A stretch of DNA of 64,000 nt from Escherichia coli O127:H6 str. E2348/69 (GTDB lineage: Bacteria; Pseudomonadota; Gammaproteobacteria; Enterobacterales; Enterobacteriaceae): NCBI RefSeq assembly GCF_000026545.1, contig NC_011601.1, one strand, 5' to 3'. A program made the position numbers and the translations under genes. Position 1 is the first letter of the stretch. Each line of letters opens with the position of its first letter. A model generated the notes under the pieces. That model ran no database searches. It was not told the DNA's origin and saw only the letters and a list, made by a program, of their open reading frames with translations. Positions 57,671 through 61,176 of this stretch are shown here, in pieces.

Positions 57671-59047
57671 ATGAAAATTATCATTCTGGGTGCCGGCCAG
57701 GTTGGCGGCACACTGGCGGAAAACCTGGTTGGCGAGAACAACGATATTACTGTTGTCGATACCAACGGTGAGCGTCTGCGGACCTTACAGGATAAATTTG
57801 ACCTGCGGGTCGTGCAGGGGCATGGCTCTCATCCACGCGTATTGCGGGAGGCAGGTGCCGACGACGCCGATATGCTGGTTGCTGTAACCAGTTCAGATGA
57901 AACCAATATGGTTGCCTGCCAGGTAGCTTACTCACTTTTCAACACCCCTAATCGCATCGCTCGTATCCGCTCACCAGACTACGTGCGCGATGCCGATAAG
58001 CTATTTCATTCAGATGCTGTACCGATTGATCATCTGATCGCACCAGAGCAGTTGGTTATCGATAATATTTACCGACTGATTGAGTATCCCGGCGCATTGC
58101 AGGTGGTGAACTTCGCTGAGGGTAAAGTCAGCCTGGCTGTGGTTAAAGCCTATTATGGCGGCCCGCTGATTGGTAATGCACTTTCAACCATGCGCGAACA
58201 TATGCCACATATCGATACTCGTGTGGCAGCAATTTTCCGCCACGATCGCCCCATTCGTCCGCAAGGTTCGACCATTGTTGAAGCTGGTGATGAAGTGTTC
58301 TTTATTGCCGCTTCACAGCATATCCGTGCGGTGATGAGTGAATTACAGCGACTGGAAAAACCGTATAAGCGGATCATGCTGGTTGGTGGCGGTAATATCG
58401 GTGCAGGGCTGGCGCGTCGTCTGGAAAAAGATTACAGCGTTAAACTCATCGAACGTAATCAGCAGCGCGCTGCCGAACTGGCGGAAAAGTTGCAGAATAC
58501 GATCGTCTTTTTTGGTGATGCGTCGGATCAAGAACTGCTGGCCGAAGAACATATCGATCAAGTTGATCTGTTTATTGCCGTCACCAACGATGACGAGGCC
58601 AATATCATGTCCGCCATGCTTGCCAAACGTATGGGTGCGAAAAAGGTGATGGTATTGATCCAACGTCGCGCTTATGTGGATCTGGTTCAGGGGAGCGTGA
58701 TCGATATTGCGATTTCACCACAACAAGCAACTATTTCTGCGTTGCTTAGCCATGTGCGAAAAGCAGATATTGTTGGTGTTTCCTCATTACGCCGCGGCGT
58801 AGCAGAAGCTATTGAAGCCGTTGCTCACGGTGATGAAAGCACCTCACGCGTTGTCGGCAGAGTCATTGACGAAATCAAGCTACCGCCAGGAACGATTATT
58901 GGAGCGGTGGTACGTGGAAACGATGTGATGATTGCCAATGACAATCTGCGCATTGAGCAAGGCGATCACGTAATTATGTTCCTCACAGATAAAAAGTTTA
59001 TTACCGACGTCGAAAAACTCTTCCAGCCAAGTCCTTTCTTCTTGTAA
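57671..59047 (+). CDS. trkA: Potassium uptake protein TrkA (tandem NAD-binding domains), 458 aa
   Basis: ORF track; [36 protein letters not shown]... Confidence 0.96.
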
Positions 59048-59050
59048 TTA

Positions 59051-59080
59051 ATAAGGCGTCTAATGACGCCTTATTATTTC
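59051..59080 (+). terminator. Rho-independent terminator after trkA
   Basis: ataaggcgtc-taatg-acgccttat followed by tatttcc. Confidence 0.6.
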
Positions 59081-59176
59081 CCTTTGATTATTAAGGATTA
59101 ATTAAATCCATTCCTGGCAGGAAAATGGCTTAACATTTGTTAGACTTATGGTTGTCGGCTTCATAGGGAGAATAAC

Positions 59177-59587
59177 ATGAGCATTATTAAAGAATTTCGC
59201 GAATTTGCGATGCGCGGGAACGTGGTGGATTTGGCAGTGGGTGTCATTATCGGAGCGGCATTCGGGAAGATTGTATCTTCACTGGTTGCCGATATCATCA
59301 TGCCACCTCTGGGCTTATTAATTGGCGGGATCGACTTTAAACAGTTTGCTGTCACGCTACGCGAGGCCCAAGGGGATATCCCTGCTGTTGTGATGCATTA
59401 CGGTGTCTTCATTCAAAACGTCTTTGATTTTCTGATAGTGGCCTTTGCCATCTTTATGGCGATTAAGCTAATCAACAAACTGAATCGGAAAAAAGAAGAA
59501 CCAGCAGCCGCACCTGCACCAACTAAAGAAGAAGTATTACTGACAGAAATTCGTGATTTGCTGAAAGAGCAGAATAACCGCTCTTAA
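59177..59587 (+). CDS. mscL: Large-conductance mechanosensitive channel MscL, 136 aa
   Basis: ORF track; [62 protein letters not shown]... Confidence 0.97.
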
Positions 59588-59802
59588 CAAACGCCTGAAA
59601 GCAGAAGGACAGTGGTAAAAAAGTGATTTACTTTCTTGCCACTGGCCTCCCAGTTCCCCCGATTGCCATGTTTTCCTTTTCGCATGTAACTGCCTTTCCC
59701 TTTCTTATTTTTCTCTACTCGCTGTCGGAATAAGGGATCATGTAGTAATGCTTCTATCGCATTATCCTTTATCTGCCCTTTAGTATGCTGATATCGGCTC
59801 AT
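59584..59802 (-). CDS. arfA: Alternative ribosome-rescue factor ArfA (YhdL), full 72-codon reading frame
   Basis: ORF track; [72 protein letters not shown] recognised as ArfA; convergent 4-bp overlap with the mscL stop. Confidence 0.88.
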
Positions 59803-59857
59803 AAAAACTCCAGTTGGTTATTTAACGGCGCGAGTGTAATCCTGCCAGTGCAAAAAA

Positions 59858-60283
59858 TCAACAGCCACTCTTAACACCACTCGCCCCTTGTTCAAGAGCT
59901 TCAAGAATCGAGCAATAAACACTGCTATGGGCGGTCCCACAACAGGCATCGTTAAGGCGTTGCAAGGAACGCTGCATACTCTGCAACTCGGCTATACGAG
60001 CTTCGACTTCCTGCAATCTTTCCTGCACAATGCCTTTTGACTCCTGACAGGTATGGTGTTCCGGATCGATACGGATCGACAGCAACTCGCGGATCGACTC
60101 CAGAGTGAAACCTAGTTGTCTGGCATGGCGGATAAATTTCAATCGCTGGAGATCGCTTTCGGTATACAGGCGAAACCCACCTTCGGTGCGTACTTCATGC
60201 CCCATCATCTGCTGCTTTTCGTAATAACGAATCGTGTCGGGTGTTACTTCCGCCATTTTTGCCAGCTCACCAATGCGATACAT
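59858..60283 (-). CDS. zntR: MerR-family Zn(II)-responsive regulator ZntR, 141 aa
   Basis: ORF track; MYRIGELAKMAEVTPDTIRYYEKQQMM... with metal-binding cysteines near the C-terminus. Confidence 0.95.
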   Translation of the reverse strand: MYRIGELAKMAEVTPDTIRYYEKQQMMGHEVRTEGGFRLYTESDLQRLKFIRHARQLGFTLESIRELLSIRIDPEHHTCQESKGIVQERLQEVEARIAELQSMQRSLQRLNDACCGTAHSSVYCSILEALEQGASGVKSGC

Positions 60284-60293
60284 ACATACTCCA

Positions 60294-60662
60294 CTAGTTA
60301 TCGTTGATTTTGTTCAACAACTTGTCAGCATAATCGCCGCGTAAAAAATCGGTATTCAATCCAGCTTGTCGCAGCTTCAATTCCAGTAATGACAATCGAC
60401 GACTAACCTCTTGATATTGCGGATCATCATGACGGATACCTTTGAGAATATCCAGAAGCTGTATTGCTTCCCTCCTATGCTCAAGTTCTGGCGGTAAGCA
60501 ACCAGCATTCTTCAGCAAGCGATACCCCGCACGTAATTCCGGTGGCACATGAGAATCATCATCCAGTATCAATGGTTCGCCGCTACCTACCAGGTTATCA
60601 AACTCACCTTTCGCTTGCGCTTCTGCTATATGACGCTCTGCCCACTGGTCAAGTAACCACAT
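60294..60662 (-). CDS. yhdN: DnaJ-domain-like protein YhdN (DUF1992), 122 aa
   Basis: ORF track; MWLLDQWAERHIAEAQAKGEFDNL... Confidence 0.9.
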   Translation of the reverse strand: MWLLDQWAERHIAEAQAKGEFDNLVGSGEPLILDDDSHVPPELRAGYRLLKNAGCLPPELEHRREAIQLLDILKGIRHDDPQYQEVSRRLSLLELKLRQAGLNTDFLRGDYADKLLNKINDN

Positions 60663-60727
60663 AAATACTCCATGGGATGAACAAAAAGAGTACAGCTATT
60701 GTAGATAAGTGGGGATGCTACGGGTAT

Positions 60728-60756
60728 AAAAAAACCCGCCGGGGCGGGTTTTTTTA
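60728..60756 (-). terminator. Alpha-operon rho-independent terminator downstream of rplQ
   Basis: aaaaaaacccgcc-gg-ggcgggttttttt, a perfect GC stem with flanking A- and T-runs. Confidence 0.85.
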
Positions 60757-60768
60757 CGTTGCTTCAGA

Positions 60769-61176
<408 letters not shown>

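Follow-up and report, generated by a model that had tools for sequence, protein, structure and literature searches.

The overlapping convergent genes arfA and mscL of Escherichia coli O127:H6 str. E2348/69 and the hairpin encoded at the 3' end of arfA

In the genome of E. coli O127:H6 str. E2348/69 the short gene arfA runs towards mscL and ends inside it on the opposite strand, with a long hairpin just before the arfA stop codon. This arrangement raises the question which of the two genes the hairpin primarily serves, and how the locus compares with its K-12 counterpart. We have analyzed a stretch of 64,000 nt from contig NC_011601.1 (assembly GCF_000026545.1), referred to below as the window; all coordinates are those of the window. 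We consider this to be the canonical arfA locus of E. coli, where the hairpin strips the message of its stop codon and the product acts as a backup rescue factor under tmRNA control, and assign to this reading a probability of about 0.93.

The identity of both genes is clear. The ORF list gives a 72-aa frame starting with ATG and a frame of 136 aa, and RefSeq has arfA and mscL at matching coordinates in the identical E2348/69 record (Table 1). The Pfam ArfA profile matches residues 4-45 of the minus-strand frame with 89.5 bits (gathering score 25.5; E = 9.1e-26), the Pfam MscL profile matches the plus-strand frame with E = 2.6e-47, and the NCBIfam MscL equivalog NF001841 scores 284 bits on the latter. 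No NCBIfam family matches the arfA frame at E <= 0.001; as RefSeq calls the identical protein ArfA despite that, the NCBIfam library probably contains no ArfA HMM. The predicted protein is identical in 70 of 72 residues to E. coli ArfA from the PDB (5h5u chain 3; ribosome-rescue structures with ArfA include 5h5u, 5mdv, and 5u4i), with complete identity over residues 1-64, so that Ala18 and the KGKGS motif (K33-S37) are present; the A18T substitution is known to be inactivating (PMC10070815; PMC8012679). The gene order obtained from RefSeq, ORFs, and Pfam, trkA-mscL> <arfA-zntR-yhdN-rplQ, agrees with the published enterobacterial arrangement, where arfA is placed between mscL and zntR and is convergent with the former (PMC3581467). 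The region 59100-59900 (801 bp) is present in 5,425 of the 5,426 E. coli genomes that are complete; nine of these (E2348/69 included; two O127:H6) have it with 100% identity. The minus-strand frame is an ordinary intact E. coli arfA, and these identities are not due to chance.

The initial annotation described a 72-codon arfA that is convergent with mscL and ends 4 bp inside it, and both the ORF coordinates and the shared TTAA bear this out. Read directly, the plus strand at 59582-59587 is TCT TAA, the Ser136 codon and the stop of mscL, and the minus strand at 59589..59584 is TGT TAA, the Cys72 codon and the stop of arfA; the stop codons have 2 bp in common, and there is no overlap of sense codons with sense codons. 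The mscL gene is 411 nt long in both E2348/69 and K-12, and 414 nt in some other strains (WP_000022450.1; loci L006 and L008). The 804-bp matches of Nissle-like strains to the 801-bp query fit this 3-nt length polymorphism.

Table 1. Features of the arfA-mscL locus of E2348/69 (nt numbers count from the first base of the arfA CDS)
Feature	Position	Strand	Basis
mscL CDS, 136 codons and TAA, convergent partner of arfA	59177..59587	plus	ORF list, Pfam, NCBIfam
arfA CDS, 72 codons and TAA	59584..59802	minus	ORF list, Pfam PF03889, RefSeq WP_000092700.1, PDB 5h5u
CDS overlap, 4-bp palindrome TTAA with both stop codons	59584..59587	both	sequence
Putative Shine-Dalgarno-like motif GGAG, located 5 nt before the arfA start codon	59808..59811	minus	inferred from sequence reading
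arfA nt 1-165, kept after the published cut, encoding 55-aa active ArfA	59638..59802	minus	translation, PMC10070815, K-12 yrdG annotation
Codons 56-72 (17 residues), hydrophobic tail absent from active ArfA	59587..59637	minus	comparison with K-12, reviews
Regulatory stem-loop, arfA nt 146-206	59597..59657	minus	folding, inverted repeat, covariation, published K-12 span
Predicted RNase III 5'-arm cut, nt 165/166, at the conserved C165xA187 1x1 mismatch	59637..59638	minus	transferred from K-12
Predicted RNase III 3'-arm cut, nt 189/190	59613..59614	minus	PMC10070815 coordinates transferred by alignment
Strain-specific U194 (G in K-12 and nearly all others), C158.U194 mismatch with 59645	59609	minus	alignment to K-12
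Equivalent of K-12 ncRNA yrdG (b4846), 54 nt, reported mscL antisense	59584..59637	minus	K-12 RefSeq, PMC10070815
Complementary stem-loop in the mscL 3' UTR, +10 to +70 past the mscL stop, -20.9 kcal/mol	59597..59657	plus	folding

A stable hairpin, expected from the initial annotation in the 3' part of arfA, is indeed encoded there. When the minus-strand RNA is folded, nt 146-206 out of 219 form a long imperfect stem with the minimum free energy of -25.4 kcal/mol; 25-26 pairs are predicted together with mismatches, two of which are 1x1 mismatches distinct from the strain-specific one. The region contains a 19-nt inverted repeat, and 10 nt separate the end of the hairpin from the stop codon. 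In a 131-nt context the z-score is -3.2, with one out of 200 shuffles folding equally well; within a 299-nt transcript the hairpin pairs have, on average, a probability of 0.84, equal to that in K-12. The published K-12 hairpin has the same span, and RNase III products from K-12 arfA are sRNAs covering nt 166-189 and 190-stop (PMC10070815). Comparison of the folded 3' third of the transcript with these data places both cuts in the stem, and E2348/69 does not differ from K-12 in sequence at either site, or in the 55-residue ArfA encoded upstream of the first one.

A permissive E-value scan of 58500-61000 with Rfam models assigned the arfA hairpin to no family; its sole overlapping match, to the plant miRNA model MIR408 on the opposite strand with 22.9 bits at a gathering score of 64, was dismissed as a generic long-hairpin match. 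On neither strand did a simple scan recognize the hairpin as an intrinsic terminator, and the U-tract following the arfA stem is weak in E. coli. At the other end of the gene, a consensus promoter scan of the 55-bp zntR-arfA spacer (59803-59857, minus strand) found no sigma-70-like promoter; the promoter of arfA may be located within the 3' end of zntR or be off-consensus. A terminator-like match at 59945..59922 inside zntR is within chance expectation. Directly after the arfA stop codon we observe a second small hairpin, AGAGCGGUUAUUCUGCUCUU (59565-59585, minus strand), with 8 bp and a 5-nt loop, which sits in the 3' coding end of mscL, folds on the mscL strand as well, and has no U-tract behind it. 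Read-through arfA transcripts may end here; alternatively, the hairpin may be a simple consequence of the mscL codons.

According to published data, the arfA stem-loop is an RNase III substrate, and when RNase III is lacking the transcription still stops just downstream of the repeat; non-stop arfA mRNA is produced either way, and its product is SsrA-tagged and degraded (PMC3989581; PMC8012679). Full-length ArfA is unstable owing to its hydrophobic tail, and ArfA shortened by 17-18 residues retains full activity with RF2 (PMC3989581; PMC8012679). If cleavage, termination, and tmRNA control operate in E2348/69 as described in the K-12 literature, transcription of arfA would proceed towards mscL and the hairpin would form in the transcript, which would be either cut in the stem by RNase III or terminated prematurely just past the hairpin, in both cases leaving a message that lacks the stop codon. 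Ribosomes would then stall at the new 3' end. With active tmRNA-SmpB, the nascent 55-residue ArfA would be tagged and degraded, and, with trans-translation missing or saturated, truncated ArfA without the tag would be released and would recruit RF2, freeing stalled ribosomes. In addition, the released 54-nt 3' fragment would pair with the mscL 3' UTR, leading to less mscL mRNA. The initial annotation attributed the non-stop message to RNase III; this is published for K-12, but cleavage is not the sole route, as premature termination leads to the same result (PMC3989581; PMC8012679). Its other statement, that active truncated ArfA accumulates only when tmRNA is compromised, would by analogy hold here, in agreement with the published account (PMC3989581; PMC8012679).

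Under this mechanism the functional ArfA would be the 55-residue form translated from a stop-less message, and not the product of the 72-codon CDS. The annotated arfA stop would rarely be reached by ribosomes, and the 4-bp overlap is therefore likely to be of little coding consequence and to have little translational meaning. In Shigella flexneri, arfA has been lost at this locus, and hence tmRNA is needed (PMC3581467); unlike it, E2348/69 should tolerate the loss of tmRNA, as its arfA locus is intact.

To assess the conservation of the hairpin, we collected at least 120 loci from species-representative genomes using a degenerate DNA pattern for DPLFRQR-x5-KGKG. They yielded 114 complete arfA ORFs from Enterobacterales and Pasteurellaceae, which are the matches listed and referred to as such below. 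A hairpin of -15 kcal/mol or below is present at the equivalent place in 108 of the 114 matches listed, with the median of -30.9 kcal/mol. This count is conservative, since in the remaining six the automatic picker took another small hairpin or a downstream terminator, and the alignment demonstrates that most of them retain the arfA stem sequences. At least five T in the 10 nt following the stem are observed in 44 of 108 orthologues among the matches listed. RNAalifold applied to the MAFFT alignment of the 114 matches listed predicts a consensus stem of 20 pairs, and compensatory double changes are seen at 16 of these. In the same alignment, 97.7% of the cells are paired, compared to 41-61% when the partners are slid by 1-3 columns, and none of 500 shuffles of the alignment reaches any of the observed pairing measures.

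The 5' arm of the stem encodes the conserved WEASGK, and the 3' arm, its near-complement, encodes the recurrent tail FFTTGLL; from this complementarity, the tail sequence seems to be set by RNA pairing and not by protein function. The position of the stop codon is variable. The lengths of arfA ORFs vary from 62 to 138 aa among the 114 matches listed, and the distance between the arfA and mscL stops, from -175 to +224 nt: among the matches listed, the genes overlap in 44 cases (17 of these with the -4 TTAA-type overlap), abut exactly in 22, and stand apart in the rest. Such drift of the stop position, together with unrelated tail lengths, is as expected if ribosomes seldom reach the stop. At the extremes, in some Pantoea and Erwinia the arfA frame continues without a stop into mscL, antisense to it, over as much as 175 nt, so that the ORFs reach 138 aa, and in Xenorhabdus the ORF stops at or within the hairpin (62-66 aa). 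From these long and short ORFs (loci L030, L076, and L121 among them), the annotated ArfA lengths are largely arbitrary.

We find arfA convergent with and adjacent to mscL in 102 of the 114 matches listed, which agrees with the frequent co-location of these genes in Gammaproteobacteria (Morra et al., 2023, PMC10070815). As the genes are arranged tail to tail, the 3' part of the arfA CDS is complementary to the mscL 3' UTR. The main function of the overlap could be an antisense, or excludon, circuit in which the 54-nt arfA RNA lowers mscL, with the control of ArfA being secondary. In K-12, deletion of arfA leads to approximately two-fold more mscL mRNA, and supplying just the hairpin fragment brings it back to normal; for the released 3' fragment, an antisense action on the mscL 3' UTR has been described (Morra et al., 2023, PMC10070815). 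The mscL-arfA pair is also given as an excludon based on RNA-seq (ExcludonFinder 2025, PMC12288877), and K-12 RefSeq annotates the last 54 nt of arfA as yrdG, "arfA-derived small regulatory RNA"; the literature searched contained nothing specific on yrdG and no Term-seq data for arfA. The widespread adjacency of the genes points in the same direction. On the other hand, the reported effect on mscL is modest, the hairpin and the truncation are kept at loci without an adjacent mscL, and the stop-to-stop distance varies widely, as described above. We thus regard the antisense circuit as the leading function of the overlap as possible but rather unlikely; it supplements the truncation of arfA as the main explanation and does not displace it. 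The arrangement in E2348/69 is the same as in the pair studied by Morra et al. (2023) and in ExcludonFinder, convergent with complementarity between the arfA 3' CDS and the mscL 3' UTR. Morra et al. class E. coli as "proximal", that is, with a gap above zero, whereas in RefSeq the CDSs of both K-12 and E2348/69 overlap by 4 bp (PMC10070815).

The other possibility is that the hairpin is mainly a terminator or 3'-UTR stabilizer of mscL, or a bidirectional terminator, with the truncation of arfA being a by-product of its position. Besides the conserved adjacency, it is consistent with the location of the hairpin, usually 1-60 nt past the mscL stop (median 17 nt) among the matches listed, with the folding of the plus-strand RNA (Table 1), and with the cleavage of the K-12 mscL 3' UTR by RNase III in vitro (PMC10070815). 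However, the 61-nt element is more stable on the arfA strand, both in E2348/69 and in 84 of 108 species among the matches listed, with the mean difference of 5.1 kcal/mol. This bias arises from conserved G.U pairs, whose complements on the mscL strand are A.C mismatches; the pairs at alignment columns 28-90 and 30-88 can form on the arfA strand only. Furthermore, a strong hairpin is retained at 12 loci among the matches listed that have no mscL in the available flank, at least 1.6 kb of downstream sequence being present for 11 of them. Finally, the mscL strand lacks a T-run past the hairpin, which the terminator scan does not report. The strand bias and the persistence without mscL suggest that the hairpin is foremost a feature of arfA, and that its use by mscL is an extra layer. 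We therefore reject termination of mscL alone as the main reading and consider a primarily mscL-directed role improbable; the two roles are compatible with each other. The initial annotation had the hairpin facing the mscL terminator region: it does lie inside the 3' part of the arfA ORF, but its counterpart on the other strand is the mscL 3' UTR itself, to which it is complementary from +10 to +70.

Returning to the arfA hairpin as a device for removing the stop codon, we observe one feature that sets this strain apart. The arfA CDS has six nucleotide differences from K-12: three are synonymous (nt 6, 84, and 102), GT>TC at nt 194-195 leads to G65V, and C>T at nt 212, to A71V. Both substitutions fall in the tail of codons 56-72, which is discarded from active ArfA. 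In the hairpin, U194 creates the C158.U194 mismatch, and C195 turns the G157.U195 pair into G-C; the resulting predicted stability is 4.5 kcal/mol weaker than that in K-12 (-29.9 kcal/mol) and 7.2 kcal/mol weaker than that of the commonest sampled E. coli allele, which has GGC at codon 65 (-32.6 kcal/mol). The mismatch lies below the RNase III cut in the 3' arm, at a distance of 5 bp. Hence the description of the locus as intact holds for the gene and for its 55-residue active part, but not fully for the stem, which is predicted to be weakened by a rare mismatch.

The U194 allele is found in just 10 out of 5,426 complete E. coli genomes (by a 37-nt probe centred on U194); the exact 76-nt hairpin region of the K-12 type is present in 2,225 genomes, and that of the E2348/69 type, in 10. 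Nine of the ten U194 genomes coincide with the nine showing 100% identity across the 801-bp region, and this distribution fits a single E2348/69-like lineage. The homologue of the C158-G194 pair among the 114 matches listed is C-G in 100, G-C in 11, and U-A in one, that is, with 12 compensatory changes; in these matches it is broken only twice, in E2348/69 (C.U) and in one Yersinia (C.A). A different stem variant occurs in E. coli SCU-115 (L008, NZ_CP054368.1), with C158A (A53D) and U192C; its hairpin, -20.7 kcal/mol, is weaker than that of E2348/69, and A53D alters mature ArfA.

Could G194U weaken the hairpin enough to yield substantial full-length, stop-containing arfA mRNA and thus change the regulation of ArfA? 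The 25 remaining pairs still fold at -25.4 kcal/mol with the same pair probabilities as in K-12, the arfA stem has two 1x1 mismatches anyway, mismatches occur in natural RNase III substrates, and the natural SCU-115 allele is weaker still. The almost invariant pairing of positions 158 and 194 (112 of the 114 matches listed) with its compensatory changes and the loss of 7.2 kcal/mol relative to the commonest sampled allele speak in favor of such an effect, as do published stem-destabilizing mutants, which have more arfA mRNA (PMC3989581). Still, full-length ArfA is reportedly unstable anyway because of the hydrophobic tail (PMC3989581; PMC8012679), and we consider a substantial change of ArfA regulation very improbable. 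The effect of G194U is probably small. There is only a slim chance that it has a measurable influence on the processing or termination of arfA and on how stable the mirror hairpin of the mscL 3' UTR is; if so, this enteropathogenic lineage would have a different basal ArfA level or mscL set-point. The arfA-mscL duplex itself should not be weakened, as the pairing is cis-encoded and G194U affects only the two intramolecular hairpins.

As an ordinary arfA, the gene has close parallels among the described systems. It shares with K-12 arfA (yhdL, b4550) the position between mscL and zntR, the 4-bp overlap, and the hairpin at nt 146-206, as well as identical residues 1-55 and both RNase III sites. 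Production of proteobacterial ArfA from non-stop mRNAs was reported by Schaub et al. (2012), as cited in PMC8012679; the N-terminal ArfA domain, intragenic hairpin, and variable tail of that set are reproduced in the 114 species among the matches listed, and the E2348/69 gene is one more member with nothing of substance different. The same logic, a backup release factor-dependent rescue factor that is made from non-stop mRNA and repressed by trans-translation, is reported for Bacillus subtilis brfA (PMC6881298), which belongs to an unrelated protein family in another organism. As the initial annotation put it, this is well-known biology: the non-stop mRNA, the tmRNA control, and the antisense fragment have all been published, and so all substantive arfA biology discussed here is already known, the allele mismatch being a small curiosity. 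The relevance of the locus is mainly in annotation and in the interpretation of expression data; reads over 59584-59657 have three possible sources, namely, the arfA mRNA, the small RNA derived from arfA, and the mscL 3' UTR of the opposite strand.

Two other terminator-like elements are located in the vicinity. Immediately after the trkA stop, at 59049-59076 on the plus strand, there is a clean terminator-like hairpin TAATAAGGCGTC-TAAT-GACGCCTTATTA TTTCCCTTTG with a T-rich tail; the Rfam matches gltS, RsaE, and Histone3 at the same position are weak, sub-threshold, and mere terminator look-alikes. In the yhdN-rplQ gap, where weak Rfam matches to sRNA and leader families (STnc370, rsmX, isrK, and istR) are far below the gathering scores, positions 60694-60790 contain on both strands a GC-rich hairpin AAAAAAACCCGCCGGGGCGGGUUUUUUU between A- and U-runs, which looks like a bidirectional terminator.
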